A stretch of 49,091 nt of DNA from an uncultured archaeon (GTDB taxonomy: Archaea > Asgardarchaeota > Lokiarchaeia > Sigyniarchaeales > SOKP01), in NCBI GenBank assembly GCA_964486045.1, contig CAZALK010000010.1, forward strand, positions 148,989-198,079, written 5' to 3'. Every line of letters starts with the position of its first letter. Position 1 is the stretch's first letter. Shown here piece after piece: positions 9,274 through 49,091 of this stretch. A model generated the notes under the pieces. That model did not search any database. It had not been told where the DNA came from and worked only from the letters and a program-made list of their open reading frames with translations. A program made the position numbers and the translations under genes.

Positions 9274-9287
9274 CGAAATACAAGTAA

Positions 9288-10490: not shown

Positions 10491-10503
10491 TTCCTATTAA
10501 TTG

Positions 10504-10959: not shown

Positions 10960-11320
10960 TTTGCAAAAGGAACTTAATTCTAATTTATGAGATATTTATA
11001 GTATAGTGTATTGCTTCATCGTAATAATTATTATTTTTATTACTCTCTTCTTTTAAAAATTTAATTCAATATAATCTTAACTGTTTTTTAAGGAAATGTG
11101 AGATTTTTATTGAACTTAACTTTTTATTCCACATAACTTCTGATAAATTATTTTGTTGGAATTTGGTTAATTAACATTAAATTTGAATTATAATTTATTT
11201 GTTTTTTGTATGCTGGAAATGTATTTTGGAGGAGAAAAATAACAGTTAAGGGACTATCGTCTCTAGGTACTGAAGTAAATTTACTGAATTTATTTAAAAC
11301 TTCCTCAAAATCAACAAAAT

Positions 11321-12424: not shown

Positions 12425-12535
12425 AATAAACCAAATTTTGATTATTACATTTTAATTATTTAATTTACCTTAAAATTAAAAATTAACGGTATCTAAAGAA
12501 CCAATTCAAGATAAAAATGATCTAAAATTAAAAAT

Positions 12536-14056: not shown

Positions 14057-14153
14057 TTCAAATCAATTGGTTGTTTTTTTTTATTATGTTATTAACTTAC
14101 AAAATTTGTGATTTTTTTGTTTTTATATTTTTATTAAAAAAATTATAGATTAA

Positions 14154-14582
14154 TTAATTTTTCATAAATTCAAATAATTTTTTTAAGATTTGGGTTTGTA
14201 CAATTAAACCAATAAGTTGATAGCTATCATTAATAACAGGTAAACGTTGGATGTTTTTTTTAAACATTAATTTGAGGATATTTCTAATAATTTCATCCTT
14301 TTTAATAACGTATGGTTCAGAAGTCATTAAATCTTTAACTGTAGTATTAGGTGATTCTAAACTCATAGCAAACCTAGCTAAGCGTATATCTCTTTGGGTG
14401 ATGATACCAATTAGTTGTCGATTTTTCTGATCCTTAACGACAGGAAGTCCACCTATTTTTTTCTTAAGCATTAAAAGTTCGGTTTTACTAATTTTTTCAT
14501 ATGGAGTTATAAAAAGGGGATTTCTCACCATTATCTCTGAAGCTTTTATTTCACCTAATTGTTGTAAGCGATCTTCCCCCAT
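14154..14582 (-). CDS. CBS-domain pair protein
   Basis: IGGLPVV..LIGIITQRDI, VKDLMT and IQRLPVI..LIGLI. Confidence 0.9.
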   Translation of the reverse strand: MGEDRLQQLGEIKASEIMVRNPLFITPYEKISKTELLMLKKKIGGLPVVKDQKNRQLIGIITQRDIRLARFAMSLESPNTTVKDLMTSEPYVIKKDEIIRNILKLMFKKNIQRLPVINDSYQLIGLIVQTQILKKLFEFMKN

Positions 14583-14690
14583 TTTTAATCCCCGTAATAA
14601 TAATCTTTATCGAGGGCTTAACTAAACATTTCCTATTACATTTTACTTATATTATTGAAATTAATCATTGTTTGAATTAAAATTTATTTA

Positions 14691-15071
14691 TTAATTAGTT
14701 TTCACTGTTTCTTCAAGATTTTGTTCGATTCTTTTTAATTTTTTGGAGTAAACATTATATTTCTGTAAAAGATATCTTCCCCACTCATTTAGTTTAACCC
14801 ACCCTCCACCTCCAGGACCACCTTTACCAGTTATCACAACAGTCATTCCTGTTCTACCTTCAATTCTCTTCAGAATATTCCATGCATACTTGTAAGAATA
14901 GTTACACTCTTTAGCTGCTTGAGTCAAGGAACCTTCTTTATTTCTTTCTATATTGTTAAGCAAATTAGCCCAACCTTTTCCCAAGATACTTTTATCTTCG
15001 AATTCTAACCAAAATTTTACACCAAAACTGAGTTTAGATTTTAATTTCTCAATTTTGGGTTCTTCAACCAT
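14691..15071 (-). CDS. ModE-type winged-helix transcriptional regulator (DNA-binding domain only)
   Basis: GSLTQAAKECNYSYKYAWNILKRIE...GKGGPGGGG..LNEWG. Confidence 0.9.
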   Translation of the reverse strand: MVEEPKIEKLKSKLSFGVKFWLEFEDKSILGKGWANLLNNIERNKEGSLTQAAKECNYSYKYAWNILKRIEGRTGMTVVITGKGGPGGGGWVKLNEWGRYLLQKYNVYSKKLKRIEQNLEETVKTN

Positions 15072-15177
15072 AAGTATTATTTATTTTTTGGATATTAATA
15101 TTTATATCTAATTATATCATATGAAAGAAAAACATTAAATTTGAGATAATTTTATTTGGCTAAGTGGTTGGATCATA

Positions 15178-15927
15178 ATGTTTTTTTCAAAAGACGAATC
15201 AGAAAAAATAGGTAAAGAAATAATTAAGAATCTATTCTTTTTCTCCGAAAATATGATGCTTGATTGTAACCAGTATATTATTAGAGATAATAACACTGGA
15301 GAACTAAGTGTATTTGATGCAGGAAATGCAATTTCCCTCAATGGGTTATTTAAAGGAATGGAAAATTTAAACTTGGATTATAAAAGAATCAAGAAAGTGT
15401 TCTTAACTCATGAACACGTAGATCATGTAATTGGGATTTATAAACTAATCCAAATTTTAAAGGACGATCCTCCTGAGATTTTTGCATATGGGACAGCAGC
15501 TAGGATATTAGAGGAAGGTGATGAAACAAAGATTCTACCCGTTGTATTAGGTATCACTGCAAGGAGATTTGGTATTGAAGTATCACCCCTTAAAGTTCAT
15601 GATTTAAGTGAAGTTAAACAAATTAGGATCTCCTCAGAATTTAGTTTTCAGATCCACTATACTCCTGGTCATTCTCCAGGTTCAATATGCTTTTATGAAC
15701 CGGATAAAAAAGTTTTGATACCAGGTGATTTAATTTTTAAAGGTGGTAGTTTTGGACGATATGATTTTCCAGGTGGCTCATTGGAAAAACTAAAAAATTC
15801 CATTAAATTAATGACTAACTTAGATGTGAAATACTTATTGCCGGGGCATGGAGGGATAAGTGAGAATGGGAATAAGAATGTAGAACTTACTTATCGGATG
15901 ATAGAATCAATGGGGTCTTACTATTGA
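15178..15927 (+). CDS. Metallo-beta-lactamase-fold hydrolase (glyoxalase II-like)
   Basis: THEHVDH, TPGHSPGS, GDLIF, GRYDFPGG and LPGHG. Confidence 0.92.
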   Translation: MFFSKDESEKIGKEIIKNLFFFSENMMLDCNQYIIRDNNTGELSVFDAGNAISLNGLFKGMENLNLDYKRIKKVFLTHEHVDHVIGIYKLIQILKDDPPEIFAYGTAARILEEGDETKILPVVLGITARRFGIEVSPLKVHDLSEVKQIRISSEFSFQIHYTPGHSPGSICFYEPDKKVLIPGDLIFKGGSFGRYDFPGGSLEKLKNSIKLMTNLDVKYLLPGHGGISENGNKNVELTYRMIESMGSYY

Positions 15928-16155
15928 TTTGTAAAGAGTTTTTTTCCTATCAAGTGTTTATTGAGTTATAAAGTACGCTCTACAGAACATTTCTTCAATA
16001 TCAGTTTATTTGAGTGGAAGATCTAGAATTTGACTTTACTTTTTCTCTTTTTAAGGTAAAGCTAAACGATACTAATATTTAAATAACACATCTATCTATT
16101 ATTTCATATAATCCTCTTTAAATTATAAAAAATTAAGGGTTAGTGAAAATTTATT

Positions 16156-16827
16156 ATGTCTGAACAAATAAAACAACCTAAACACCCAAGTGAAATATAT
16201 ATAAGGAGCTACCCAAAAATCATTTTTTTCTGGCCTCTTTTAATCACTAGCTTTATTCTATGGATAATTCAAGTCATAGGCGGCAATCCGATCTCAATAT
16301 TAGGCACAGTTTGGTTTATTGTCTTTTTTATTAATATATTTGTAACCGCATTTGACTTTTCTTCAACCAAATTCTTTGTTTTAGTTTTAGCGATCGTAGT
16401 AGTACTTCTACTTGTAGTATTCTTAGTTCTTCCAAATTTCGCGATATCACTGAATTTCGGGACATTGAATCTAGGTCTATCAACACAGTTCTATCTGGCA
16501 ATGACTTTAATTCTGGTATTCATTTTAGGAATAGTAATTATAAGTACAAGATTCGATTATTACAAAATTGAAAGAAATGAAATTATCCATAAAATGGGTA
16601 TTTTTAGCTCAGCTGAAAGATTTCCAGTGAAAAGTTTACGATTCAAGAAGGAGATTCCTGATGTTTTTGAATTCTTCTTGCTAAGAGCTGGTTCGTTAAC
16701 GATTATGCCCGGAGGAAGAGATGAGGTAATGTTCTTGCCCACCGTCTTAAATATTAATAAAGTCGAAAAACATCTTGATTGGTTGCTCTCTCACGTCTCT
16801 GTCGAACCAGATGAAATCGATAAGTGA
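16156..16827 (+). CDS. Membrane protein, about 4 TM helices, with a possible C-terminal PH-like domain
   Basis: Four hydrophobic stretches, then YKIERNEIIHKMGIFSSAERFP...GSLTI, which resembles bacterial PH-type domains. Confidence 0.7.
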   Translation: MSEQIKQPKHPSEIYIRSYPKIIFFWPLLITSFILWIIQVIGGNPISILGTVWFIVFFINIFVTAFDFSSTKFFVLVLAIVVVLLLVVFLVLPNFAISLNFGTLNLGLSTQFYLAMTLILVFILGIVIISTRFDYYKIERNEIIHKMGIFSSAERFPVKSLRFKKEIPDVFEFFLLRAGSLTIMPGGRDEVMFLPTVLNINKVEKHLDWLLSHVSVEPDEIDK

Positions 16828-35122: not shown

Positions 35123-36700
35123 ATGTCAGAAGACTCCAAAGAATCAAGTGATCTTGAAGAAGAACAAGAGGATGAGTCGAAGATTGGCGTAGAAAATGAT
35201 AAAAATCAGGAAGAAAAGCAAGAGATTAAACTAGGTAAACCGATTGTTATAAGGGCTGAAGCATATAAGACAATAATTTTATATGCAAGTAGATATGCTA
35301 ATAGATCAATACCGCCTGAAGATTGGAAGGAAATTTATGGGATTTTAATTGGGTATTCTGATGATGAACTTGTATATATTGAACGAGCAGAGGCCTTAAC
35401 ATTCGGTCATACTACCGATGTACAACTAGATCAAAAGCATTATATCTTTATTGATGAAATTCAACAGAAATTAGATGATGAAGGAAAGAAATATTACATG
35501 GTTGGTTGGTTTCATACCCATCCGGGCTTGAATCTATTCTTTTCTTATATCGACATCATTAACCAGCTTGGATTTCAGCAAAATAATGCCGATTTTTGTG
35601 GTTTAGTATTTGATCACACACTTCTAGGGAAAAAAAAACTTGAAAAAATTGATGGAACTGAACATTCCATTACAAAATACGACACTGGTTTTGAAATTTA
35701 CAGAATAACAGACGTAAATCTGAATACTAATGATCCAAAATATGATAATAATTATCATCAAGTTACATACATCATCGATGGATTAAACAAATACTTTTTC
35801 GCTAATGTCTTATCAGAATTATCAGCTCTTGTAACCGAAGGGAAACCCTTACAGACAGCATATGGGGAAAAAAACCCACTAAAAGAGAAATCAGAAGAAT
35901 CCTCAACTTTTCACTCTCAAGTAGAATTTACTTCAAGAGACAATGCTTTATCAGAAATTCCGATGGATGAAGATATCACATTTGGAGTCGATGATTTTTT
36001 GCAGCAAAATATCAAAGTCGAGAAAATACAAAAAGAAGTTCAGATAAAAGAAGAAGCAGAGCATTTAATATACGAAGGAAATCAAGCTTTTAATAACAGA
36101 GATGCTTTTACTGGCATTGAAAGGTTTAGACAAGGAATTGAAAAATATCAGAAAATTAAAAACATTAAGAAAGTTTTGGATTTATTAAGAACCGTTTCCC
36201 AAAAATGTATAGCTAACGACCACTTAGTCTATGCAGGAGAATTTGCTGAAGACTTATACAAATTTGCTAAGAAACAAAAAAATCTCTTTTATACTGGAGT
36301 TGCCAATTATATTTTGGGTTATTTACTTCTGAAAAAAGGTGAAAACGAAGTTCTAGAAGAAGGTTTGAATAGGATTCAGGATGCTGCAGTAAATTTTGAA
36401 AATGAAGCAGATTATGCAGGAGCAGGAATGTGCTTTAACAAAATTGGGACAATTTATCAATCAAGATTACACAAGTTAGAAAATGCGTGTTTATTTTACA
36501 GAGCAGCAATTGAAAATTATAATAAAGCAATTCTTAAAATACACCCCTTAAGGACGTCTTTTTGGAACAAACCAGATTTATTAATAGAGAAAATTGTAGA
36601 ATTGAGAGATATCGTTGAAGAATTATTACCAAACCTGGAAAAAAGCAAATTAAAAGATAAGATTAAGAACGATCTGGGTAATTTGCAATATAACTTTTAA
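35123..36700 (+). CDS. MPN+/JAB (JAMM) isopeptidase domain fused to TPR/SNAP-like helical repeats
   Basis: EIYGILIG and GWFHTHPGLNLFFSYID give an intact E...HxH-x7-S-x2-D motif. TPR-like C-terminal half; acidic N-terminal tail. Confidence 0.9.
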   Translation: MSEDSKESSDLEEEQEDESKIGVENDKNQEEKQEIKLGKPIVIRAEAYKTIILYASRYANRSIPPEDWKEIYGILIGYSDDELVYIERAEALTFGHTTDVQLDQKHYIFIDEIQQKLDDEGKKYYMVGWFHTHPGLNLFFSYIDIINQLGFQQNNADFCGLVFDHTLLGKKKLEKIDGTEHSITKYDTGFEIYRITDVNLNTNDPKYDNNYHQVTYIIDGLNKYFFANVLSELSALVTEGKPLQTAYGEKNPLKEKSEESSTFHSQVEFTSRDNALSEIPMDEDITFGVDDFLQQNIKVEKIQKEVQIKEEAEHLIYEGNQAFNNRDAFTGIERFRQGIEKYQKIKNIKKVLDLLRTVSQKCIANDHLVYAGEFAEDLYKFAKKQKNLFYTGVANYILGYLLLKKGENEVLEEGLNRIQDAAVNFENEADYAGAGMCFNKIGTIYQSRLHKLENACLFYRAAIENYNKAILKIHPLRTSFWNKPDLLIEKIVELRDIVEELLPNLEKSKLKDKIKNDLGNLQYNF

Positions 36701-37494: not shown

Positions 37495-38835
37495 CTAAGA
37501 GGAAATGTCAATGAAAACTTTTTTTTCATTTTTCCACTCTCTTAAAAACAATAAAGTTCTCTCATCAAACGGATTCTGAACAAGAAGAAGATGCTGAAAA
37601 TTGATCAAATCATGGACACATTCTGGCAAACTACGTAGGTTATTCCATCCCAAACCTAAATATTCAAGATATTCTAATTTGCATATTTCCTTAGGCAAAT
37701 GTTCTATTTGGTTATTAGATAAACCTAATTTCCTTAAGGATTGTAAATTTCCAATACTGACTGGTATTTCTTGTAAGTTAAGTCCATCCAAAAATAATAC
37801 TCTTAAAAATCCTAATTCGCTAAATCGCTCAGGGAACTTCTTTATTCTGTAAAAGTTCGTTTCACTGCTCCAGATACCGATCCCTGTGACATGACGATTT
37901 TCAAAATCATACGTGAAGAGCATAGGACCAATGTATTGATAAATATAGTTACTTAACTTAAAATAAGAATAGTTCTCTCTCTTTTTTTCTTGCATATTTT
38001 TCTTGAGCAATATAACTGCACTGGAAGAAATAGACTCGATTATAAACTGCTTTATTTGCTCCTCCAACTTGTTTAAAACCTCACCATCTTGACCGAACGC
38101 GCTCCAAAACTCGGTCCTACTTAAATAATTAATATAGCCCCCATTCTCCAACATTTCTATAGCTTTAAAATTCCCAAGACGAAGAATTTCGAGAATCACC
38201 TCCTTTAATAGTTGTAGCGCTGGTTTATCACCCATTTCGATAAGCATCCTTAAAACATCTAAAGGTAAATCATACTTATAATTCCAAAATGGAACGTCAT
38301 AATTTTTTCCACGTAATTCTTCTAACGTCGGATCTACGATACTCCATAGCTCTTCTTTGCCTAAATATTGAAAGTAACCCTCTTCATATAGGAATGCAAC
38401 AACACTATCAGAACCTTTTATTAAACGTTTGGCAATTTCCTCTTTGAATACCGCCTGCGCTTTGAAATCTCCCACAGTAACCAACTTCTTTAATAAGGGA
38501 AAGGATAGATTGCTCTTGAGAAGGCGAGAATCATAATTTTGTTCCACCCAAACCTGCAGATTGCTACAATGTCCCCAAAACTCTGTTTCGGGAGGTATTT
38601 TATAATACCATTCTAACTCTTCTGGGTTCTCATTTAAAGACTCCAAAGCTTTCCCTAACCACTCTGAAGCCTCATCAATCGATTCAAAGCCACCATTTGC
38701 ATTAGATTCAGGAATATTTATTAATAAAAATTTACATTGTTGGAACCTCTCACCAGCTATATAAATGATCGTATTACCCCCTTCTAACTTGAGATTAATG
38801 AACTCATTAACCTTAAATTCCTCTAATCCGTTCAA
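37495..38835 (-). CDS. Lokiarchaeal-type LRR protein (N-terminal EFWGHCSNLQ domain, C-terminal LRRs)
   Basis: FKVNEFINLKLE...FQQCKFLL...PETEFWGHCSNLQVW...NLSFPLLKKL; C-terminal IPVSIGNLQSLRKLGLSNNQIEHLP-type repeats. Confidence 0.88.
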   Translation of the reverse strand: MNGLEEFKVNEFINLKLEGGNTIIYIAGERFQQCKFLLINIPESNANGGFESIDEASEWLGKALESLNENPEELEWYYKIPPETEFWGHCSNLQVWVEQNYDSRLLKSNLSFPLLKKLVTVGDFKAQAVFKEEIAKRLIKGSDSVVAFLYEEGYFQYLGKEELWSIVDPTLEELRGKNYDVPFWNYKYDLPLDVLRMLIEMGDKPALQLLKEVILEILRLGNFKAIEMLENGGYINYLSRTEFWSAFGQDGEVLNKLEEQIKQFIIESISSSAVILLKKNMQEKKRENYSYFKLSNYIYQYIGPMLFTYDFENRHVTGIGIWSSETNFYRIKKFPERFSELGFLRVLFLDGLNLQEIPVSIGNLQSLRKLGLSNNQIEHLPKEICKLEYLEYLGLGWNNLRSLPECVHDLINFQHLLLVQNPFDERTLLFLREWKNEKKVFIDISS

Positions 38836-38940: not shown

Positions 38941-41900
38941 TTAAAAGAAATCGGAAATAAACCTAAAGTGATGGTAACTTTCAAAAGGGTCTTCACTTTG
39001 ATCAATTGGCAGTATGGGAACAGAATGTTGCTTAAATTCCCTCAGTACGGAAGAAATTGCGTTATTAAAATCTTCGTTAAGAGCATCAGTTGATGTGAAT
39101 ACATTGTATCTGTCATTGGTTGTGAAATGTAAATCTGCTAAACCAACTGCATCCTGAAGCACATTAAAGGCACCAAGAAACTCTGAAGAACCTTCTTCAT
39201 CAACTACAAATGTTAATAAAGTTATACCTCCCTCTAACAATCCTCTTAAAACTTTTTCGAATTTATCTTTAAACAAATGAAGATTCTTCCCGTCGTTTGT
39301 ACCGTCAAACTCCCAGCTTTTCCAGATAATATCATCAATTTCTATTAGATTAGTTGCAGTATCTATATACTGATTGTGTCCAGTTCTTTTAGATTGACCC
39401 AAACCGTGGGAGAATGAAACCATTGGAACTAGGTAGACCTTTTTAGTCAAACCCGCTTCAGGATTCCCTAGACTTTTAGACAAATCTTTGAAAACTTGAC
39501 CGAAAAGTGTAATTGGTTCCTCTAAATCTGATAATAAAGCATCTGCCTGAAGTCCGACTACGCTTCTTACCTTAATTCTTACTGAATCGGAGAAAACTTT
39601 GTCATATCCATCTATAGCCCATGAAGCTCTATCTCTTCCCTCCAATAAAATTGAACTTAATTCAGAAGGAACATCCTCTAAATCAAACGATATAGCTAAT
39701 TCATCAATTCTGCCGTTTAGGAAAGATAATATTTCCTTTCTCTTGATGTCAAAAGCGTGGGCTTTTCCTTGGAATAATAACTTATATAATGCAGATTCAA
39801 TAACATATAAATACTCTCTCCGTAAACTTGGGGATTCCACATTATCTACGACTTTTGTCTTGAATCTATTCAATAACTCCTCTAAGAATAAACGAGTTCC
39901 CCTCGCCTTGGTAAGTTCTATCTTTATGCTTGTTCGAAACTTCTTCCCTAAAGCACTTAATAAAGCATTAGATAGATGATTGGTATATTGTGTTCTTTTA
40001 TTAGCAAAAATCTCATCAACGTCCTTATAAGCAGGATTCCAAAAAGATGTCGGAATATGAGGACTCCTAATAAACAAATCCTCGGATTGTCCTCCAAACT
40101 CACGGACGATTTTAACTCGTAATGTTTGCCCAAACATGTATGAGTCTAAAACATAACTGAACGAATTTCCAGATATAGCAACCCCTGGAGGTAAATTGTT
40201 CTTTGTTGATGACACATGTTCAAGTAACAACCTAAAATCTCTAGTATGAGCTCCCAAAAAGCCTTTCCAAGAGGGAGTAATAAAATTAACCTTATTTCCA
40301 TCGAAGTATAGTGAGCCTGTGATCATCTTGGAATATGTGAATCTTCCAACAATATCTATTAACGCTTCAACTAAACCTTCCATTAATGATCCATCCTCAA
40401 ATAAAGTCTCCCCTTGCCTATACTGCTTGAAATCAGTACCGCTAGAAAACCCATTTGGGAACCTCTTGCTAAAGGACTGCTTATACTTCAGAATTTTTTC
40501 GTTGATTTTTTGTAGTTTCGGATCTGTAATCCCACTTGGAGCATTATAAGAAGTTATTGATTGTAAGATTGTATTTGCCCATTCTTTATCAGTTTGCTCA
40601 GCCTTGAAAATTACGTGATTTACATCCTCGGTACCTTTAAACGTTACATAACTCACATCATTATTTTTTTGTTTAAAAAGGTTTGTGAATATAAATTCTA
40701 ATTCAGAATAATCGTTTCCAAGATGGACTTGTCCATTTTCGTCTTTGTAGGAGTTTAATACTTTTAATATCTCAGGAATAATAGATTGCAAAACTGAAGT
40801 CTCAATGGAAGTCCCTCTATGATCTAGCTGAGTTTGAACGATTGCTGCTAACGGCAATAGAAAAGTGTTTTCTAGCTCTAAAGCCTGAATCTTTATATTT
40901 TTAGGAATAGGGTATTGCCTTAGAAAAGGAACTAAATCCAACTTGGATGCACGAGGTTTGTTTTTCCTTCCAGAGTATGTCTCATCAGAAAATCTATCCT
41001 TATTATAATCAATATCAATATTATGGGCAAGCTTCATCGAAGTTAATTGCATTTGGCTTCCCATGACATTATATGTGTTTCCATGACGATTAACTTCATA
41101 AAAAATTAACTTGATACCTTTATTTCCATCGATTAGATTCTTCGTTAATGTTTCTTCATCTAAATACCATTTTTCTAAATTATCCCTAAGCTGGACTATC
41201 CCTGATTCTTCATCAACTAAGAAGTCACCATACCTTCCTAGTAATCTATGACCATTATTGTGCGTGAAGGCTATTTGTGGTTCGATATCGTAATCTACTT
41301 TACCACTCTCTACATTAAAAAATTGTTTCTTCGGATATCCCAATTGATATTTAGTTTCCATAGGTAACCCTGAAGCGACTTGTTCTAAACTAAATAAACG
41401 ATAAATAGGTCTCCCGGTGGAATCCATTTCAAATCCTAAGACGGTTGCTTCGGCGATGTATCTTTTACCGGAGTCTTTATCTATTGAGGTTTTTATTCCA
41501 TCTAAATCACCTGTTTGTTCAATATATTGCCTACCTAAAAATCCTTTTACATCATCAACATACACGACCTTACCAGTATCCATGTACATCCGTATTGATC
41601 CTTCTAGGGTTAGTTTATATTCCTCATTTCCCTTACTATCATATTTAATTCCCCAATAATCTTGTAATTTGGTTTGTTGTGGTTTTGACGGATCTGGCTC
41701 AAGTAAGTCTTGAATAAATGTATCTATCGACCCTGAATAAGACAACTCGAACTGGTTCGCATATTCCTGAAATGCTTTTAAGGAAGATTGTTGAGATGGT
41801 TGTAAACGTGCATTTATCTCTTGGATCTTATTAAATTTATGCCCATCAGCTAAAGAAAAAGAGCCTCCTCTTTTTTTCACTCCTATTCTTTGCCATGGAC

Positions 41901-44900
41901 CAGAGCCTAAATCTACTCCCTGAGATAATTTCAATAGAAAATTATCCCCAAATGTATTTATTGTATTGTATGTATTTTCTTGGCTTAAAAACGGAGCTAC
42001 TAAAACAACCCTATTTATAGTATTTGTGGGGGTTAACCTATTATCTTTAATTATCTTATTGTTTGTCTCATAAACTACCCTGAGAGTATTCTCAATTATT
42101 CCATCTAAACTAAATGTTTGGAATTTTATTGCATTTTTAGCTGGTGTATATAATACTAACCATTGATCATCTTTCTTATTATAATAAATTCTTCTTCCGG
42201 AATCGAATCGGTTGTTGTCTCCCTTAATAGCATTAGTAGCAAGTCCAAACTTTTCAGTTTTTATATTCTCTTCAAATTCTTCATTATGAATTACAATCTC
42301 TTCAAAATCAACAAGTTCATAACCTTTTTCAATGAGAGAGTAATGTTCTTTTGGCAAGACTTTGAGTTGGGTCTCAATTTCTAACTCGCTTCCAGAATCG
42401 AATCCTTTAGGATGATAAAAAGTCCTTGGAGAAAAAGAGTTCATATGGGTGATACAAGAGAGAAGTGAAGTCGCAATAAAATCTAAATTTGCGAAAAGAT
42501 TAAGAGATTTTCTAAAAGACTCTACATTTTCCATTAGAACTTTAAAGAGCTCACCTTTTTTTACATCATGGGGAATTTTCCCTGAGCTACTGGTTGAATC
42601 GTATAATTTTTGAACAATGCCAATTAAAATTGCTTGTTTTATAATGTTATCAGGATTTTCTGAATCGTCGTAAATCTTTTCCAGTCTTGTAATAATATCA
42701 CTAGCCTCCTTTTCTTGCTGAATATACTTACCATCAGTTTTGGAGAGAGTAGGATCTTCTTCTTTAGCAGAAGCAATCCATAACCTTCTAACAGAAGACT
42801 TGATTGCATCGAAACCCTTTTCTTCAAAATATTTGAGACTTTCTGAAACCAAATAGTTAAGTCCTGGTAGAAATTCTGTAAAAAATTCTATTCTATCAAA
42901 AACATCAAAGAAATTCTCTGATTGATCGCGTATAGTATTATGAATATTTTCCGTAAATTCTTTGGCAAATGAAACATCTTTAACTGTATATTTCTCGATA
43001 AGTGCTTTTAGATTAATTTCCCAAGCCTTCCCTGGGCGAGCTCCAGCTTGAACTGCCATCATTGAAATGGGTGAATCAGACGAACTGATAATATTAGATA
43101 CTAGTGTATCATCTAATAAATCTACGTTATTAACTTCATTACCTTCCTTTAGAAACACTCCATCTTGCATTAACACGAAATCATGGTATGAGTCTTGAAT
43201 TATTCTGAAATAACGGGATCTTACCCAATCGTATAATTCTTGTAACTTTAGTCCTGCAGGAACCCATATTGTCTTAAGCGCCGTCTCTGGTGACTCTCCA
43301 CTCTTCCTTAAGCTAACTTCTATACGTCTCTCCCCTAAATCTAACTCTATTGGAAATCGTTCAAGATTAGTTTGAGCTTTTTGTTCAAAAGCTTCACGCC
43401 TTATTTTATTCTCCTCTAAAAGATTAACTAGTTTTGTGTTTTCTTGAAGACGATCATGTTCCTGATTTATTGATGCTTCTAGATCGTTTACAGTTGTTCT
43501 AGCTGTGGAAGATTCAGTTTGGGAGGGACTAAGTGATTTAACGGCTGGAGAACGGCTGATAGATATCTCTTCCGCCATTATCTTCTGGAAATTAATCTCT
43601 AAACCCATCAAATCGAGCTCTAAGGTATTGAGCTGATCCAGCAATGGGTCAAGCACATATTTATTACCGACTAGACGTCCTAACTCCATCTGGAAAAGAA
43701 TGTCAGTGCTGAGATCAAGCACTTGAGCCATTGTTGCCAAACCCCCGCCACCAACAAAAAAGCTGGGGATTGAGAAGGCAATACTTACAATTCTATTGGA
43801 GTCAATTAGAGACAAATAATCACGTTTTTGTTTGCTCCTTACATCAGCTATAACATCCGCAGTGGCAGTCTGAGATTGCTTTAGAGATTTAGTTTTAGTA
43901 GCTTTATCAACGTTTGCATCTTGAACCAACTCACGAGTAGCTTCAGCACGTTTAAAGACAGATTTAAGATTTTGCAGTAATGAGTCTGATCCCCCGAAAA
44001 CGTTTCCTAAAAAGGAACTAGCAGCACCCATAAATGCTTCCCTGAACGAAGACACAAACATGGACCAAAACTCCGCAACTTCTCGGGGTGTTCCGGTTCT
44101 AGCGCCAAGCTTTAACATTTCACTTTCAATCCACGGATCAATGTATAATTCTTCAAACTCTTCGGTTATTACTTGAATAGGAATGGTTGCGGTATAGGTG
44201 ACTAATGTGAGTAACGCTGTTTTTCCAAATCCTAGCGTAGCCCCAGTGAGACTAGCTATTGCACCTGCAGATAGAACGGTTGGAATAATTAATATAATCG
44301 AAGTAAGTAGTGTAGATACGCGGGTGATGTGTGAAGTATATTCTTTTTCAACTTGAGATTGTGAAAGTTCAATAGCAAGAGTGTGTACGCTTACATAGTC
44401 AGAGATGAGATATGATATGGCTTGGTCGAGGGCGTCTTTAGCAAGGTTGTTTGATGTTGTGTCTAATATTAATGAACCCCGATCCCCATAATCTTGTTGA
44501 ACATAGTCATATCCGATATTGATACCATCTCTACTAATACGGGTTCCAAAAACCTCAGGTGACGATTCTTTATTTGGGATTACAGTCTCGATATGGATAT
44601 TAATCCTATAGGAACAAATCTCTTCTGCTGAGAGTGCGAAAGCTGAATATTTATCTAATACTAAATCGTCAAATGAGATTGTGAAATAAATAGTACCTCC
44701 TTCAATTACATAATCTTGTTTGCTAATTTCAATGTCAGATGCAAAATCTATTATATCAATTTGAGTCCATGTATATGTTTCTAATTTCTGAACTCCATTT
44801 CTATAAACCATTCTTTGTCCTGTGTATTCTACCTCTTCTAACTCCAATATATCCAAAGTAATCATAGTAATTGGGTATTCGAAGCTCTTGGAAAGAAGTG

Positions 44901-47900
44901 GAACTTTTACTTTATACCCCTTCTCTATTTCCGCGTGAGTAAGATTTTCATCAATTCCTCGTGGAGTCTCACGGAATAGAAATGAGTACCACTTACCATC
45001 ATAAATTCCAGTTTTAATATCGACAGATACAATCCCGCCTGTGTTTATTCCCTCATCCTCTAATTCATTATACCTCTGTTGGCTTACTACGATGGGCTTG
45101 TAAAGCCCGGTTCGAGGTTGGGTTAAGCGATAAGCATCACTATATTCATCAATAAACCCATAAGCAGGACGTCCGTTTATATTATATGGCCTTATAGTGT
45201 TAAACTCATCATTAGACATCGTAGATACTGCATTTTCTAAAGCCCCAATACTGTTGAGCGGATATTTCGAATACGTCCTTGTTCGAGCAGTGTCTTTGTC
45301 AGGCGTAAATTGATAATACTCATAGGCGTTGTAAGAAGGAAGCTCGCTGGAAGCAAGGAAATAATCAAGGTTGGAATATGATGTAGAACCATGGATTAAC
45401 GCTGTGTACATCTTGTTACCATTAAATAAGTACTGTAATACTCTTGGATTATTTCTCAATGTTTCAGCAGTTAATTCCTCGTCATCTAAAAGGATTGTCT
45501 CACCACTTTTTGATAAACGATTTCGTTTGCTAGTATCAAGAGTGTTAATTAGCATATTAAGAGTGTCGTCAGAATAATCAAGAGTCGAACCTGCTGTTCT
45601 AAGCGTCTTTGGAGGCGTAACAATTGCTTGTCCGTTATATAATCCCTCAGAATCGCTTACTGGTAGGTATTTTGCACTGGGGTGCCCTTGATGGTGTTCA
45701 TAGAGAGTATAGACTTCGCTGGCCCGTTTATCACTTAAAGTGGTTGGATTTCGTGTATCTTCAATGTATGTACCATCTTTCTCAAGATTATAGTAAGTAG
45801 TTGAGGCAACTACCTGAGCTTGAATTTGACGTTTCTCTTCTTGAGAGGCTACAGACAGTCCGAAGTAAATAAGAGCGAAAACGACACCAGCTATAGCGCC
45901 TATTCCACTTGCAGATAAGGTTGTTATTGCAGCAATACCAATGCCCACAAGTGCCGTAGTTATAGCGGCAGTTGTTATCATTAATACTTGTTCCCATATG
46001 TCGCTATCAAGTGATTTTTGGTATATATTCCACGTTTCACCATACCAATGAGAGTATACCTGAAGGAATAGGTCTGGGGCATATTGATTTAATTCAGAAG
46101 AGGGCATAAGTCTCGAAATCTCAAATATCTGATCTTTAGGAATGTAGTTATCAAATTCGGATAAGGGGAAGTGAGCCTTCATGAAGTTCTTCATTTCATT
46201 ACTATCACCATGGAACATGTAAGATGCATTTTTTCCCATACTTTCAACATATTCATATTCAGCTCTATACGTTTGAGATACAGAATTAAACCCGACTGGA
46301 TTATCTTCGTTTAATACTTGATAAGGCTCAAAGTCATGTTTCCCATCATAATTAAAACCAATTGAAAATACATTGTAGATTCCATCCCCATCCTCATCAG
46401 GAGTCAAAATAAATACTGTCTCATAAAATGCATTCCCATCTGAATCGTAATAGAGATAATGACCGTCCATTTTTCCTTTTCCTGTAGAAAAGGCATCTTT
46501 GTCAGAAGTGTGGTATACTTTTCCATCAGGAGGAGTTACAAATACCCCGTTTACTTTAAATAAGGTAGATCCGACAATGTCATTTGCTTTGGGATCTGTT
46601 TTTAAGTAATCGTGGTATAAACTAAACCGATCCTTAAGTCTAATGATAATAGTACGCTCTAGTCTGTTTTCCACCACGTAGCCATTATCACCCGTTTTGG
46701 TGGTGACTGTTTCAAACTCCATAGGAACATTATCAACACCCCACGTTTCAGTATTCCAATTTAAACCTGCAGGGTCGGTTATTAAGAATGGAAGTGCATC
46801 CGTTTCGACTTTTTGGTTGGTTTCCTTATTTATTATTGAGAGTGTTTTGACTGTAGATTCGATATCGGTGGTGGCTGTCATATCAAATTCATCCTCAAAT
46901 TTATTGGAATATTCGCGAACTTCTACTAATTCTCCTTCTTCCCAGTCGCTATAAGTAAGACTTTCTTGAGTAATAAAGTCATTGAAATAGGTAGTTCTAT
47001 TGTGTTCGTTATATTTTGTATAAGTATCGCGGATGAATGTTATTGCTGTGGATGTATACTCCGCATCTTTTATGAAAAAGTCTGTAAAGTTTCCGGTCTC
47101 AATTCCTTTAACAGTGATATATTTGTTGATTGCGCTTAAGTAATTCCGTGGAGATTTACTAAGACCTTGGGTTAAGATACTGTCATGGAATCCGAAAATG
47201 GCGGTCCATTCATCTAAATAGCTATCTACTTCAATAGAATCAGTTTTCTTCTGATATGTGACATGAGAGTCTGTAAACCCGTCTAAGTCAAGATCTACTG
47301 ATACCGCATAAAACACAGTTCGTGTAGTCTGTGTTGTAGTTACCCTTTCCTGTGAAGAGCGCATCGCATAGCCATAGAAGTTATCTGTCGATTTATAATC
47401 TAAACTGAACCATTTGGTTCTTTTTTCGGCTGGTATTTTTTCATCAATTTTGGTCTCAACAGATTCAAAGTCTTGAATAACACGGTACCATATAATCTCG
47501 CTTCCACTACTATTCATAATCCCATATTTAGTAATATCTATCTTTCCATCTTTGTCTATGTCTATTAGTTGCTTATAATCAACCTCTCCGTCTTGATCAA
47601 GGTCAGCTTCATAAATTACGTTATAAGGATCTTCGACAACCTCAAAATTAATAAATCGAGAGCTTGAATTAAATCCTTTTAAGTGTTGGTCAATAGCTAA
47701 ATCAGTATTGCGTATATAATCGATGGACTCAAAACTCGTATAACTGGAGACTATGGTCTGGGCATCTTCTGATAGAAGATATTCAGGGGAAACTTCTAAA
47801 TACGCAAAAGAAATGGTATAATAGTCATAAAAAGTGGCTTCAGGATCAGTTAAATAAGTTTGGTTGAAGTTGGTCGAGAAGTTTAGGAATGTTCTTTGTG

Positions 47901-49089
47901 AAACGGGACCTGCAGTAAAATTCAAAATTACTGTTATGAGATCAAATTGGTTAAGAACTCCGTCTCCTGAATCTAAATCATTAATTGTTATTTCGTTGTT
48001 TGTGGCATTGAAATCAATACTATAAGACATATTATCATCTTCAATGGTTGCCCTAGTGAAATTTGGATAGGAAGCAATAACTTCAAATAATGTAAGATTT
48101 AAGAAATCTTGGGTGAAATTGTACTCGGTTTCAAATGTATAGAAATAAGATGCTTTATTTTCATACACGGTAAATGATTCAGAGTAGTATTGAACAGTCT
48201 CATAATCATAATCATCATCGTTAACTACAAGCTCGTCATACCATAGCTCGTATCGGGGTGTTAGTAAGTAATCTGAGTTATAGATAACATCAAGAGAGTA
48301 CGCATCAAGGTTTTCATATCGTAACTCGAGGCGTTCATTCCATGAGTTATTGAACGTATATTCGAAATAAATCGTGGTATTAGGTTCGATTAAAGCTGGA
48401 AGTTCAATTTCCATTCCCCAGTATTCTTGGAATTTGTCAAATCCTTGGTTCCATGTGAAATTTCCGGTGGTTGAGTCGTATAAGAGTTGATAGTCATCTT
48501 CATTAGAACTACCAAGAATCCCTGAGGTATAATAATTATAGTTTTCATCATAAATCTTGAGATGTTCTAGCCATTTCCCCTCGTCTGCATCATTAAAGAA
48601 GAGGGGAGTCTCCTCGAAAATTGGAATATATCCGTCAGTTTCAGGAGTGATACTGGAAGTAAAGTTTATTTGGTGGGTAAATTGCCACACTCTTGCATTC
48701 ATACTATCATATTCATTTGTGAGATCATGAGATTCTTGGACAATCGCAAATTCATGGACAGTAAGTTCATACGCGGGGTTAGGAACTGAAAAGAGCAAGT
48801 TGGTAAAATCTATAAAGCCGTCAACTGCAAATTGGTCTAGGGTAGTAAGGGGCATTTCAACTAAAATATCTCTATAAGTACCTAAATAATCAGTGCTGAA
48901 TGGAGTAAGCTCTATGGAAGTGCTGTAATAGTAAGGATCGGTAAAACTAGAGTAATTTAAGGAGTCGCCGGTATTTATAAGCATTAACTCAGCATATCTG
49001 GGTAGTGAACTGTAATCATAGTCAACAAATTTCTTCGCAAAATATACTTTTTCTACCCCAATTTGAATTGTTTTTTCAACCGGAGTGTG
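38941..49089 (-). CDS. Giant (>3380 aa) multidomain, probably exported protein; 5' end lies beyond the window
   Basis: The frame stays open upstream of the track ATG at 48984 to the window edge (HTPVEKTIQIGVEKVYFAKKFVDYDY...). Contains DxDxDG motifs, hydrophobic hairpins, a putative Ubl domain and a long C-terminal region. Confidence 0.9.
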   Translation of the reverse strand, partial: HTPVEKTIQIGVEKVYFAKKFVDYDYSSLPRYAELMLINTGDSLNYSSFTDPYYYSTSIELTPFSTDYLGTYRDILVEMPLTTLDQFAVDGFIDFTNLLFSVPNPAYELTVHEFAIVQESHDLTNEYDSMNARVWQFTHQINFTSSITPETDGYIPIFEETPLFFNDADEGKWLEHLKIYDENYNYYTSGILGSSNEDDYQLLYDSTTGNFTWNQGFDKFQEYWGMEIELPALIEPNTTIYFEYTFNNSWNERLELRYENLDAYSLDVIYNSDYLLTPRYELWYDELVVNDDDYDYETVQYYSESFTVYENKASYFYTFETEYNFTQDFLNLTLFEVIASYPNFTRATIEDDNMSYSIDFNATNNEITINDLDSGDGVLNQFDLITVILNFTAGPVSQRTFLNFSTNFNQTYLTDPEATFYDYYTISFAYLEVSPEYLLSEDAQTIVSSYTSFESIDYIRNTDLAIDQHLKGFNSSSRFINFEVVEDPYNVIYEADLDQDGEVDYKQLIDIDKDGKIDITKYGIMNSSGSEIIWYRVIQDFESVETKIDEKIPAEKRTKWFSLDYKSTDNFYGYAMRSSQERVTTTQTTRTVFYAVSVDLDLDGFTDSHVTYQKKTDSIEVDSYLDEWTAIFGFHDSILTQGLSKSPRNYLSAINKYITVKGIETGNFTDFFIKDAEYTSTAITFIRDTYTKYNEHNRTTYFNDFITQESLTYSDWEEGELVEVREYSNKFEDEFDMTATTDIESTVKTLSIINKETNQKVETDALPFLITDPAGLNWNTETWGVDNVPMEFETVTTKTGDNGYVVENRLERTIIIRLKDRFSLYHDYLKTDPKANDIVGSTLFKVNGVFVTPPDGKVYHTSDKDAFSTGKGKMDGHYLYYDSDGNAFYETVFILTPDEDGDGIYNVFSIGFNYDGKHDFEPYQVLNEDNPVGFNSVSQTYRAEYEYVESMGKNASYMFHGDSNEMKNFMKAHFPLSEFDNYIPKDQIFEISRLMPSSELNQYAPDLFLQVYSHWYGETWNIYQKSLDSDIWEQVLMITTAAITTALVGIGIAAITTLSASGIGAIAGVVFALIYFGLSVASQEEKRQIQAQVVASTTYYNLEKDGTYIEDTRNPTTLSDKRASEVYTLYEHHQGHPSAKYLPVSDSEGLYNGQAIVTPPKTLRTAGSTLDYSDDTLNMLINTLDTSKRNRLSKSGETILLDDEELTAETLRNNPRVLQYLFNGNKMYTALIHGSTSYSNLDYFLASSELPSYNAYEYYQFTPDKDTARTRTYSKYPLNSIGALENAVSTMSNDEFNTIRPYNINGRPAYGFIDEYSDAYRLTQPRTGLYKPIVVSQQRYNELEDEGINTGGIVSVDIKTGIYDGKWYSFLFRETPRGIDENLTHAEIEKGYKVKVPLLSKSFEYPITMITLDILELEEVEYTGQRMVYRNGVQKLETYTWTQIDIIDFASDIEISKQDYVIEGGTIYFTISFDDLVLDKYSAFALSAEEICSYRINIHIETVIPNKESSPEVFGTRISRDGINIGYDYVQQDYGDRGSLILDTTSNNLAKDALDQAISYLISDYVSVHTLAIELSQSQVEKEYTSHITRVSTLLTSIILIIPTVLSAGAIASLTGATLGFGKTALLTLVTYTATIPIQVITEEFEELYIDPWIESEMLKLGARTGTPREVAEFWSMFVSSFREAFMGAASSFLGNVFGGSDSLLQNLKSVFKRAEATRELVQDANVDKATKTKSLKQSQTATADVIADVRSKQKRDYLSLIDSNRIVSIAFSIPSFFVGGGGLATMAQVLDLSTDILFQMELGRLVGNKYVLDPLLDQLNTLELDLMGLEINFQKIMAEEISISRSPAVKSLSPSQTESSTARTTVNDLEASINQEHDRLQENTKLVNLLEENKIRREAFEQKAQTNLERFPIELDLGERRIEVSLRKSGESPETALKTIWVPAGLKLQELYDWVRSRYFRIIQDSYHDFVLMQDGVFLKEGNEVNNVDLLDDTLVSNIISSSDSPISMMAVQAGARPGKAWEINLKALIEKYTVKDVSFAKEFTENIHNTIRDQSENFFDVFDRIEFFTEFLPGLNYLVSESLKYFEEKGFDAIKSSVRRLWIASAKEEDPTLSKTDGKYIQQEKEASDIITRLEKIYDDSENPDNIIKQAILIGIVQKLYDSTSSSGKIPHDVKKGELFKVLMENVESFRKSLNLFANLDFIATSLLSCITHMNSFSPRTFYHPKGFDSGSELEIETQLKVLPKEHYSLIEKGYELVDFEEIVIHNEEFEENIKTEKFGLATNAIKGDNNRFDSGRRIYYNKKDDQWLVLYTPAKNAIKFQTFSLDGIIENTLRVVYETNNKIIKDNRLTPTNTINRVVLVAPFLSQENTYNTINTFGDNFLLKLSQGVDLGSGPWQRIGVKKRGGSFSLADGHKFNKIQEINARLQPSQQSSLKAFQEYANQFELSYSGSIDTFIQDLLEPDPSKPQQTKLQDYWGIKYDSKGNEEYKLTLEGSIRMYMDTGKVVYVDDVKGFLGRQYIEQTGDLDGIKTSIDKDSGKRYIAEATVLGFEMDSTGRPIYRLFSLEQVASGLPMETKYQLGYPKKQFFNVESGKVDYDIEPQIAFTHNNGHRLLGRYGDFLVDEESGIVQLRDNLEKWYLDEETLTKNLIDGNKGIKLIFYEVNRHGNTYNVMGSQMQLTSMKLAHNIDIDYNKDRFSDETYSGRKNKPRASKLDLVPFLRQYPIPKNIKIQALELENTFLLPLAAIVQTQLDHRGTSIETSVLQSIIPEILKVLNSYKDENGQVHLGNDYSELEFIFTNLFKQKNNDVSYVTFKGTEDVNHVIFKAEQTDKEWANTILQSITSYNAPSGITDPKLQKINEKILKYKQSFSKRFPNGFSSGTDFKQYRQGETLFEDGSLMEGLVEALIDIVGRFTYSKMITGSLYFDGNKVNFITPSWKGFLGAHTRDFRLLLEHVSSTKNNLPPGVAISGNSFSYVLDSYMFGQTLRVKIVREFGGQSEDLFIRSPHIPTSFWNPAYKDVDEIFANKRTQYTNHLSNALLSALGKKFRTSIKIELTKARGTRLFLEELLNRFKTKVVDNVESPSLRREYLYVIESALYKLLFQGKAHAFDIKRKEILSFLNGRIDELAISFDLEDVPSELSSILLEGRDRASWAIDGYDKVFSDSVRIKVRSVVGLQADALLSDLEEPITLFGQVFKDLSKSLGNPEAGLTKKVYLVPMVSFSHGLGQSKRTGHNQYIDTATNLIEIDDIIWKSWEFDGTNDGKNLHLFKDKFEKVLRGLLEGGITLLTFVVDEEGSSEFLGAFNVLQDAVGLADLHFTTNDRYNVFTSTDALNEDFNNAISSVLREFKQHSVPILPIDQSEDPFESYHHFRFISDFF

Positions 49090-49091
49090 AT

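Follow-up and report, generated by a model that had tools for sequence, protein, structure and literature searches.

A diverged ubiquitin copy at the cargo-exchange junction of a giant Lokiarchaeial membrane protein

What is a ubiquitin-like domain doing deep inside a giant archaeal membrane protein, and what is the ubiquitin-type tail at its end for? This question is raised by an open reading frame on the minus strand (38941-48984) of the window, by which we mean the whole stretch of 49,091 nucleotides that was analyzed.

Results and Discussion

Architecture of the giant protein

The host, a giant membrane protein, comes from a Lokiarchaeia-type (Asgard) archaeon, and its ubiquitin-like domain (Ubl) lies between a conserved anchor and an exchangeable cargo. 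The anchor is made up of a sequon-rich outer part, hydrophobic hairpins and a coiled coil. Residues are numbered from the ATG at 48984, with the caveat that the reading frame is unbroken to the end of both the window and the contig (3382 codons), so that the protein is probably longer than this numbering implies. Its parts and the two genes discussed with it are as follows.

45991..48984, minus strand: N-terminal part, sequon-rich, presumably extracellular and glycosylated; frame open to the contig end
45838..45990, minus strand: first hydrophobic hairpin, residues 999-1049 (hydropathy scan)
44155..44331, minus strand: second hydrophobic segment or hairpin, residues ~1552-1610 (hydropathy scan and sequence)
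43735..43791, minus strand: last hydrophobic segment preceding the Ubl, residues 1732-1750 (hydropathy scan)
43324..43683, minus strand: linker and coiled-coil region, residues ~1768-1887 (BLASTP of the C10 and C9 paralogues, and alignments)
43042..43323, minus strand: Ubl (beta-grasp) domain, residues 1888-1981 (translation, hhalign, AF2, Foldseek, VIA)
43042..43050, minus strand: tail Gln-Ala-Gly, residues 1979-1981, candidate processing site and recombination junction (alignments)
38944..43041, minus strand: cargo, 1366 residues (1982-3347), swappable between paralogues, no known family
37495..38835, minus strand: LRR-family gene (Pfam LRR), 109 nt downstream of the giant ORF on the same strand
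35123..36700, plus strand: JAMM/MPN+ protease with a helical-repeat C-terminus (Pfam JAB, E 1.4e-11), candidate ubiquitin-tail protease

Residues 1-980 hold 18 sequons (N-X-S/T), against 11.4 expected, and the N-terminal part is 75% identical to that of a paralogue on contig C9. The linker and coiled-coil region extends from the point where homology to the C9 paralogue stops to the start of the Ubl, and it contains an RFPIELD motif in common with the metagenomic protein P0011. Sequons are avoided from here on: none occurs in residues 1780-3347 (12.2 expected), nor in the cargo by itself (10.6 expected). Stripped of sequons in this way, the cargo probably passes the outer face of the membrane. 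An acidic stretch can be read from the sequence after the last hydrophobic segment, and the charge distribution around this segment, together with the sequon avoidance, suggests that the Ubl and the cargo may lie outside the cell. We know of no ubiquitin enzyme outside the cell.

Pfam searches with the whole giant protein and with five pieces of it returned noise only, and a word-indexed search with region 1780-2200 against proteins of similar lengths found no match.

The embedded domain is related to the ubiquitin of its own lineage

The 94 residues that the first-pass annotation had quoted as an internal ubiquitin-like domain (IEVSLRK to MMAVQAG) are indeed the translated reverse complement of 43042-43323, that is, residues 1888-1981. 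We compared a profile of four embedded copies only (A2) with a profile of free Lokiarchaeial ubiquitins only (A4) by hhalign. The two aligned over 85 columns with a probability of 97.6% and an E-value of 3.1e-12, pairing ISMMAVQAGA with ITVMATQAGG, so that MMAVQAG-A of the window's copy stands opposite VMATQAGG of the free protein. The free ubiquitin of this archaeal order has 82-87 residues and the C-terminal end QAGG, and the embedded-only HMM (A2) matched a free-standing ORF of 84-99 codons in 124 of the 154 genomes of the order. In the window's own genome, the free ubiquitin (G000:C10:126185-126397) ends in TQAGG-stop and scores 35.3 bits against Pfam PF00240 (cut-off 25.4), a family matched individually by 16 of the 27 members of A3.

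The AF2 model of residues 1876-1992 is a beta-grasp fold (pLDDT 79.3, pTM 0.69), computed from an alignment that contained free ubiquitins, a possible source of bias. Every secondary-structure element that had been assigned by eye reappears in the model: b1 (1887-1894), b2 (1903-1909), a helix (1914-1925), b3 (1935-1940), a short helix (1962-1966) and b5 (1973-1978). From about G1981 onward the model shows disorder, which points to flexibility both at the end of the QAG tail and in the linker that comes next. Ubiquitin-like folds took up all of the best 50 Foldseek rows. The best structural matches in Foldseek and VIA were UFM1, the USP7 UBL, the RAD23 UBL, SUMO, ISG15 and ubiquitin; in VIA, UFM1 ranked first (Z 9.1), with Z-values of 8-9.1 for UFM1, the USP7 UBL, the RAD23 UBL and ISG15 and rmsd values of 2.2-4.0 A. 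The ESX-3 translocon complex (6umm_B) was found at Foldseek rank 8.

Profile homology and predicted fold thus bear out the domain: the ubiquitin of this archaeal lineage has a diverged copy in residues 1888-1981. Several other searches were negative: the window's copy matched no Pfam family, even at E 10 (P0001:1870-2000 and 1876-1992); a phmmer comparison of the domain with PDB sequences yielded only noise; the four-sequence A2 profile did not reach significance against the PDB (di-ubiquitin, E 0.36); and a word-indexed search with the domain alone against longer proteins found no match. BLASTP against two Ubl-domain proteins of contig C5 gave one match that is at most suggestive (E 6e-4 over 40 residues) and otherwise nothing. 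A chance resemblance, with 1888-1981 not a ubiquitin-like domain at all, could appeal to the missing Pfam match of the single copy, to the failure of A2 alone against PDB ubiquitins and to the possible bias of the model, but the mutually consistent structural matches speak against it and, on sequence grounds, the comparison of embedded-only with free-only profiles and the HMM result across the order effectively refute it, so that we assign it a negligible probability.

The window's copy and the free Lokiarchaeial or Asgard ubiquitins are homologous beta-grasp proteins in which an FR-x-x-G...P motif in b1 and the helix is common to both, and their b5-tail stretches are alike (M-M-A-V-Q-A-G-A and V-M-A-T-Q-A-G-G). 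In contrast, their identity is just 20-24%, and the window's copy has an insertion of ~15 residues after b3 and an Ala at the position of the second Gly. The free protein stands alone, with 0-2 residues after the domain, whereas the window's copy lies within a membrane protein, near residue 1900, with 1366 residues behind it.

The tail is conserved and marks a recombination breakpoint

The window's copy retains the C-terminal strand and the tail (I-S-M-M-A-V-Q-A-G), and residues 1979-1981 align with the Gln-Ala-Gly-(Gly) of free ubiquitin. The window's tail has a small-residue-Gly, as in UFM1 or ATG8, and no Gly-Gly, Q-A-G being followed by A. We then asked how far the ending is conserved among the embedded homologues, as the first-pass annotation had proposed to check, and found the terminal small-residue-Gly in 16 of 18, aligned with the Gly-Gly end of free ubiquitin. 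The same 16 copies carry the pattern I-T-V-M-x-x-Q-x(1-3)-G, with Gln as the best-conserved column, at a whole-domain identity to the window's copy of 13-37%. P0003 and L043 lack the motif, the former in spite of having its cargo in common, and in L040 a Pro directly follows the Gly. The spacing from Gln to Gly varies from one to three residues, which makes the tail also compatible with a merely flexible linker of small residues. On the other hand, the tail is gone from two ordinary Ubl-domain proteins encoded on contig C5 of the same genome, so it is not kept by default.

The breakpoint of cargo exchange lies directly after the tail glycine. The metagenomic proteins P0011 and P0015 have only the coil and the Ubl in common with the window's protein: they match just query positions 33-203 and 111-203, respectively, both ending at the residue after the Gly, and continue with ~1300 unrelated residues. 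Three G067 paralogues (L037, L038 and L039) are near-identical until QQ[KR]G and unalignable beyond. Counted from A1982, the cargo model enters its first confident helix at residue 6. The domain boundary that had been placed at this glycine is thereby supported. Other large proteins of the order carry the Ubl module at the equivalent position. It is also optional, being absent from the C9 paralogue and from several other ORFs of the genome with sequon-free tails; the C10 and C9 paralogues are 75% identical over ~1950 residues and then have unrelated C-terminal halves. A constant N-terminal part, unrelated C-terminal domains and a sharp breakpoint between them, as in polymorphic toxins, were thus found in C10/C9, in G067 and in P0011/P0015.

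The cargo and the neighboring genes

The cargo matched nothing in Pfam and gave no usable match in the ESM Atlas; it is 37% identical to L054:4822-9528 across its whole length. In the AF2 model of its first 779 residues (pLDDT 57.8), confidence is confined to the helical stretch of ~200 residues at the start. Foldseek with this low-confidence model returned nothing at E <= 0.001; some of its weak, non-significant rows were to EEP-fold nucleases, which we do not count as evidence.

The LRR-family gene is related to the gene downstream of the cargo orthologue in G081 (38% identity, E 1e-92) and to that downstream of P0011 (34% identity, E 7e-56). Such a pairing of ORF and LRR-family gene recurs at seven loci of the genome, five with the partner 109-151 nt downstream and two within 1 kb. 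The N-domain of the partner is conserved whatever the cargo, and the similarity reaches further where the cargo is common. A partner specific to the Ubl was considered and rejected, because LRR-family genes also follow cargo genes without a Ubl. In four genomes, LRR-family genes were seen beside embedded-Ubl loci and also beside the free ubiquitin gene.

The JAB protein of the window has an intact JAMM motif (E...HxHx7SxxD), as read from the sequence. The genome encodes four JAB proteins, at least three E2s and five PF00240 matches, and E1/E2-type genes are present. Besides the window's own, the JAMM proteins lie at G000:C5:175445, C2:173095 and C12:54786. As a dedicated syntenic partner of the Ubl, the adjoining JAMM gene was rejected, since the adjacency is not conserved in other genomes: in G149, G081, G054, G067 and G059, none of the contigs with an embedded-Ubl ORF had a JAB match, and none was found near P0011 or P0003. 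A complex predicted for the Ubl and residues 30-245 of the window's JAB protein, its JAMM domain, had a score of 0.08 and a mark of 0.32, which speaks neither for binding nor against it. An archaeal Rpn11 homologue is described as processing a ubiquitin precursor in PMC6043591.

What the tail may be for

Taking these observations as a whole, we regard as the best explanation, with about even confidence, that the Ubl is a release module of lineage ubiquitin origin between anchor and cargo, read through its tail. The tail would have been retained because a ubiquitin-specific protease reads it, most likely a JAMM enzyme that would also trim the free QAGG-x ubiquitin precursor. A cut after the small-residue-Gly would free the cargo from the anchor, much as deubiquitinases act on linear ubiquitin fusions, and the Ubl would serve a polymorphic effector-like system as its release (pre-cargo) module. 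The conserved tail suggests, and we infer, that ubiquitin-type cutting there would release an end piece of 1366 residues. Since the cargo probably passes the outer face, cutting may precede export or happen in a recipient cell's cytoplasm. In a bolder and rather improbable version, the exported, sequon-free cargo would enter a neighboring Lokiarchaeial cell, the ubiquitin-tail protease of the recipient would cut after the small-Gly, and a cytoplasmic LRR-family partner would protect kin.

The Ubl may instead be an integral domain that stays uncleaved and offers a docking surface, for instance to a Cdc48-type unfoldase, the proteasome, an E2 or the LRR-family partner; the apparent conservation of its tail would then reflect no more than common descent and a demand for flexibility in the linker. 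Many internal UBLs are never processed, and USP7, RAD23 and BAG6 are among those that match the structure best; the distance from Gln to Gly is variable, and Ala replaces the second Gly in the window's copy. The LRR-family genes beside both embedded-Ubl loci and the free ubiquitin gene also hint at a link between ubiquitin and LRR proteins that needs no cleavage. However, the b5-tail stretch with its Gln is the best-conserved part of copies that are 13-37% identical to the window's, the tail is missing from ordinary Ubl-domain proteins that the genome also encodes, having been lost there, and recombination breakpoints pile up exactly behind the Gly. We therefore consider docking possible but unlikely.

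We also considered that the Ubl helps in the export or assembly of the large C-terminal part, or aids the folding or solubility of the cargo. Small beta-grasp proteins and domains (YukD/EsaB, the EccD N-terminus) accompany type VII secretion, and the ESX-3 translocon at Foldseek rank 8, a cargo as free of sequons as an exported part should be and the acidic stretch behind the last hydrophobic segment would all agree with such a role. This is doubtful, however: the domain is specifically related to the conjugatable ubiquitin of the lineage, not to YukD-type proteins, and an export helper would leave both the retention of the tail motif and the optionality of the module unexplained.

Finally, after cleavage the C-terminal Gly of the anchor-Ubl could be activated and conjugated, placing the giant surface protein covalently on a target lysine. 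Despite the E1/E2-type genes and a tail similar to that of the conjugatable free protein, we hold this to be very unlikely, since the window's copy has one Gly only, preceded by Ala, conjugation of such an anchor-Ubl has no precedent known to us, and the scheme presupposes a cleavage step that is itself hypothetical.

Comparison with known systems

The closest archaeal relatives of eukaryotes appear to use a tailed ubiquitin as a modular joint in giant, fast-evolving membrane proteins. Ubiquitin freed from linear fusions by a dedicated protease is a eukaryotic hallmark, known from the precursors Ub-eL40, Ub-eS31 and polyubiquitin, and pestivirus polyproteins carry ubiquitin inserts that are cut by host ubiquitin hydrolases. 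As in such fusions, a tailed ubiquitin is here fused head-to-tail to another protein through a short, exposed linker, and QAGG-x precursors must be trimmed by proteases that the lineage possesses. Unlike in them, the window's Ubl lies inside the chain with a huge membrane anchor ahead of it, its tail has small-Gly instead of Gly-Gly, and its cleavage is inferred; deubiquitinases cleave Gly76-substituted ubiquitin fusions poorly. If the joint is cut, ubiquitin-fusion processing would be older than eukaryotes and used in an apparent system of conflict or recognition between cells, Asgard JAMM proteases would gain a concrete, testable substrate, and the detachment of a 1400-residue cargo from a megadalton anchor would be explained. 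If a recipient-read latch were true, linear ubiquitin-fusion processing would be the activation step of a contact-dependent effector system. Even uncut, the conserved tail and the precise breakpoint make up a new junction module for annotating otherwise featureless giant genes.

Integral UBLs (RAD23, BAG6, USP7 HUBL, TBK1 ULD) resemble the window's domain in fold and in location inside a larger protein, but they are generally without the C-terminal tail of ubiquitin and are not known as recombination junctions.

In bacterial polymorphic toxins, the pre-toxin domains and releasing peptidases include PT-VENN, PT-TG, HINT, ZU5 and a caspase-like CPD, and the list of Zhang et al. 2012 (PMC3482391) contains no ubiquitin-like pre-toxin domain. 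The likeness lies in a conserved module that separates a constant delivery part from C-terminal domains that can be exchanged, with the breakpoint directly behind it and a partner gene immediately downstream. In contrast to these toxins, the junction module has the fold and origin of the lineage's own ubiquitin, the host is an archaeon, the cargo is ~1400 residues long with no known toxin fold, and the LRR-family partner differs from a classical immunity protein in retaining its N-domain across cargoes.

Giant Asgard proteins have been described before in the aloposon proteins Otus and Ephialtes, in an account that does not mention ubiquitin (Wu et al. 2022, PMC8813620). We liken them to the window's protein by description: all are very large Asgard membrane or surface proteins, with exchangeable C-terminal parts free of glycosylation sites and with partner genes.

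A diverged ubiquitin within the giant protein

The first-pass annotation had recognized by eye a ubiquitin-like domain (Ubl) ending in MMAVQAG, and the 94 residues it quoted are the reverse-complement translation of positions 43042-43323 of the window.

38941-48984, minus strand: giant ORF as read in the sequence, 3347 codons counted from the first ATG
43042-43323, minus strand: Ubl, residues 1888-1981 by translation

The host genome (5.18 Mb, G+C about 31%) encodes ubiquitin, E2 and JAB proteins of eukaryote-like type along with numerous LRR proteins, a gene content that suggests Lokiarchaeia-type Asgard archaea as its relatives. The giant ORF has no in-frame stop up to the window end, where contig C10 ends too; the assembly has therefore probably removed the protein's N-terminus, which makes the residue numbers relative. 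A 75%-identical paralogue on contig C9 also begins at a contig start and has its first Met at codon 35, the same codon as in the giant ORF (on the 48985-49091 side of the window), and the two ORFs of about 9500 codons on C7 and C8 begin at contig starts as well. The breaks in the assembly probably fell within repeated 5' parts, so that the giant ORF and the C9, C7 and C8 genes are all truncated.

The Ubl stretch alone gave no match in searches of Pfam and of PDB sequences, as it is too diverged. We also compared residues 1780-2979 exhaustively with 1.84 billion representative proteins and found 19 relatives. In two of these, the match is confined to the coiled coil and the candidate Ubl: it covers query positions 33-203 for P0011 (1715 aa) and 111-203 for P0015 (1412 aa, truncated at a contig end), and in each case it stops one residue past ...QAG. 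We then searched 154 genomes from the same order with an HMM built from four embedded copies (A2). It matched in 124 genomes, and the matched ORF was almost always free-standing and 84-99 codons long. The free ubiquitin of this genome, encoded 22.6 kb upstream of the window, ends in ...VITVMATQAGG-stop and passes the Pfam ubiquitin model (35.3 bits; cut-off 25.4). Its counterparts in other genomes end in QAGG plus 0-2 extra residues, and QAGG followed by a few residues is the usual appearance of a modifier precursor. An hhalign profile-profile comparison between A2 (embedded copies only) and A4 (free Lokiarchaeial ubiquitins only) gave a probability of 97.6% (E = 3.1e-12), with an end-to-end alignment that places ISMMAVQAGA opposite ITVMATQAGG.

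The AlphaFold2 model of residues 1876-1992 (pLDDT 79.3, pTM 0.69) has the strand and helix order of a beta-grasp, with every element at the place assigned to it by eye, and disorder sets in at G1981. A caveat is that the 27-row folding alignment (A3) included free ubiquitins; the A2 scan and the A2-A4 comparison supply the homology that justifies this. The best 50 Foldseek matches in the PDB were all ubiquitin-like folds, at modest E-values (4e-3 to 2.5e-2), and include GABARAP/LC3, BAG6, ubiquilin, UFM1, SUMO, RAD23, ubiquitin and ISG15; VIA-align gave Z-scores of 9.1 to UFM1 and 8-8.6 to the UBLs of USP7, UBX and RAD23. The profile comparison, the genome scan and the predicted fold thus confirm the proposed domain. 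It is a solid member of the ubiquitin superfamily at the profile and fold level, with no direct Pfam match, and is a diverged copy of the lineage's own ubiquitin that has retained the recognition strand and the tail.

The Ubl at the border of exchangeable cargo

The C9 paralogue is 75% identical to the giant protein across about 1950 residues; similarity then drops to 36% and ends near LGRLVGNKYVLDPLLDQLN, about 110 residues ahead of the Ubl, and the remaining ~1550 residues are unrelated. Three paralogues in genome G067 are near-identical through the Ubl to QQ[KR]G, beyond which no alignment is possible, and in P0011 and P0015 the coil and Ubl in common with our protein give way to unrelated ends of ~1300 residues. 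A stand-alone protein of 1568 residues (L054:4822-9528, genome G081) has both the Ubl and the complete cargo (residues 1982-3347) in common with ours, the cargo with 37% identity over 1366 residues. The breakpoints in G067, P0011 and P0015, together with this cargo-sharing protein, argue strongly for an independent module bordering constant and exchangeable parts, with a breakpoint hot spot directly after the tail. The small residue and Gly had been placed at a domain boundary in the first-pass annotation, and it is directly after this tail that the G067, P0011 and P0015 proteins part from their kin. At locus L052 (a contig of GCA_030605085.1, around 8906-16617), the stand-alone homologue P0003 is flanked by molybdopterin-binding and molybdopterin oxidoreductase ORFs and may have inserted into a metabolic operon.

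When an HMM of A3 was run over this genome, it matched the giant protein and two further ORFs; neither the C9 paralogue nor other related ORFs gave a match. The module is optional.

Contig C7, 1-28494, plus strand: embedded Ubl, residues 8838-8925 of a 9498-codon ORF (A3 HMM)
Contig C13, 8743-10749, minus strand: embedded Ubl, residues 134-214 of a 669-codon ORF, tail QAGAG|S (A3 HMM)

The C7 copy has the tail MVGG|A, followed by a 573-residue end without N-X-S/T sequons, and an LRR partner gene lies 151 nt downstream. Small proteins elsewhere carry a QxG-tailed Ubl at the N-terminus or close to it (L023, G072:C508; L046, G150:C234) or near the C-terminus (L045, G037:C630, whose gene adjoins a free ubiquitin gene), in each case followed by an extension of 40-330 residues. 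Linear ubiquitin fusions thus seem to be common in this lineage.

Retention of the tail

We compared the tails of 18 embedded copies, drawn from this genome and from others. The pattern I-[TS]-[VI]-M-x-x-Q-x(1-3)-G is kept in 16 of them, terminal Gly included; our copy reads QAG|A and not Gly-Gly. The other junctions include QAG|S, QSG|S, QEAAG|R, QKGG|G, QSAG|C, QAAAG|Y and MVGG|A, and the G081 orthologue that shares our cargo has QIAG|A. The tail Gln is the best-conserved single column among the copies, whose whole-domain identity to ours is 13-37%. Contig C5 encodes two ordinary Ubl-domain proteins that reach or come close to a PF00240 match and lack the QxG tail, which argues that retention is not automatic. 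Several features count against a strict reading of the tail: Ala replaces the second Gly of free ubiquitin in our copy, the distance from Gln to Gly differs among copies, Pro directly follows the Gly in one copy, and P0003 and L043 (the remaining two of the 18) are without the motif.

Sequon avoidance in the cargo

38944-43683, minus strand: sequon-free C-terminal part including the cargo (N-X-S/T count)

Residues 1780-3347 contain no N-X-S/T motif, against 12.2 +/- 3.2 in shuffled sequences, and zero was reached in none of 1000 shuffles. The reversed motif occurs 17 times (12.2 expected), that is, at expectation; the genome-wide observed/expected ratio for N-X-S/T is 1.08, and the N-terminal 980 residues are enriched (18 sequons; 11.4 expected). 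The unrelated cargos of the C9 paralogue, P0011, P0015, P0003 and a 1954-codon C8 ORF also have none, where 12-17 are expected, and the unrelated tails of family members on C3 and C7 are sequon-free too. Because no reader of this motif is known other than the oligosaccharyltransferase on the membrane's outer face, the cargo is probably exposed at that face at some stage and would have to stay unglycosylated.

Cargo residues ~1-200 form a confidently modelled helical domain (AlphaFold2) beginning at cargo residue 6. With disorder at G1981, this would leave roughly Q-A-G-A-R-P-G-K as an exposed linker between Ubl and cargo. The rest of the cargo showed no recognizable fold or family in Pfam, ESM Atlas, AlphaFold2 or Foldseek. 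Its low-confidence model gave weak, non-significant Foldseek matches to the EEP-fold nucleases/phosphatases CNOT6L, PDE12, TDP2 and nocturnin, at cargo residues ~450-660 (window ~40900-41700, minus strand), a placement guessed from the beta-rich part; we take them as a lead only.

Neighbouring genes

37495-38835, minus strand: LRR-family partner gene, same strand as the giant ORF and 109 nt downstream of it
35123-36700, plus strand: JAMM/MPN+ protease with an intact E...HxHx7SxxD motif and a helical-repeat C-terminal half

The LRR partner shares 38% identity (E = 1e-92) with the gene that follows the G081 orthologue and 34% (E = 7e-56) with the one that follows P0011, which has an unrelated cargo; similarity reaches further to the former than to partners of unrelated cargos. 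Its N-domain (~170 residues, motif FWGHCSNLQVW) occurs 39 times in this genome. Such a gene lies 109-151 nt downstream, on the same strand, of five ORFs with sequon-free tails, and within 1 kb on the opposite strand of two more; the pairings involve the window copy and contigs C3, C7, C8, C9 and C11. The partner is thus not tied specifically to the Ubl and belongs to the system as a whole. In addition, each of the four genomes examined for it has an LRR gene of this family within 0.25-1.9 kb of the free ubiquitin gene, which hints at a functional tie between this family and ubiquitin.

Free ubiquitin with LRR-family neighbour: C10:123815-126397 (this genome); G081:C67; G067:C84; G149:C183

Orthologues of the JAMM protease (56-67% identity) occur in G059, G081 and G054 on contigs without an embedded-Ubl gene, and its adjacency to embedded-Ubl loci was not conserved in the other genomes checked. 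A predicted complex of its JAMM domain (residues 30-245) with the Ubl scored 0.08 against a mark of 0.32, which counts neither for nor against binding. A ubiquitin-system cluster at C5:167100-176000 contains two Ubl-domain proteins (139 and 264 aa, without QxG tail), a 111-codon PF00240 ORF, an E2 (C5:174673) and a JAB (C5:175445).

Possible release of the cargo

We propose that a ubiquitin-tail protease cuts at the tail and frees the cargo, and that the tail is kept for this purpose, a reading whose chances we regard as evenly balanced. The enzyme would read the Ubl tail and cut there, much as linear ubiquitin fusions are processed; QAGG-x precursors must likewise be trimmed by an enzyme of this class. 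One report describes an archaeal Rpn11 as trimming a ubiquitin precursor (PMC6043591). Sequon avoidance, together with an acidic flank behind the last hydrophobic segment, points to export of the C-terminal part, and if it is exported, the cut would take place either before export or inside a recipient cell. The main rival to cleavage is a UBL that serves for docking and stays uncut. Less favoured are a Ubl that helps export or folding, and an anchor conjugated through the exposed Gly.

Comparison with known systems

The anchor-Ubl-cargo architecture is like that of ubiquitin-fusion precursors, and the N-terminal-Ubl proteins L023 and L046 resemble eukaryotic ubiquitin C-terminal-extension fusions. 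At the system level, our junction looks like a pre-toxin or releasing module of the polymorphic toxins of bacteria, for which Zhang et al. 2012 (PMC3482391) list HINT, ZU5, caspase-like and other modules, none of them ubiquitin-like. Ubiquitin goes unmentioned in the paper on Asgard giant proteins (PMC8813620). Our literature search found no account of a ubiquitin-like junction; its coverage was incomplete, and novelty is thus unproved. Ubiquitin-type cargo release, though a proposal only, would be the biologically exciting step. The Ubl combines known kinds, namely a ubiquitin-like domain, the ubiquitin-fusion architecture and the junction of polymorphic effectors.
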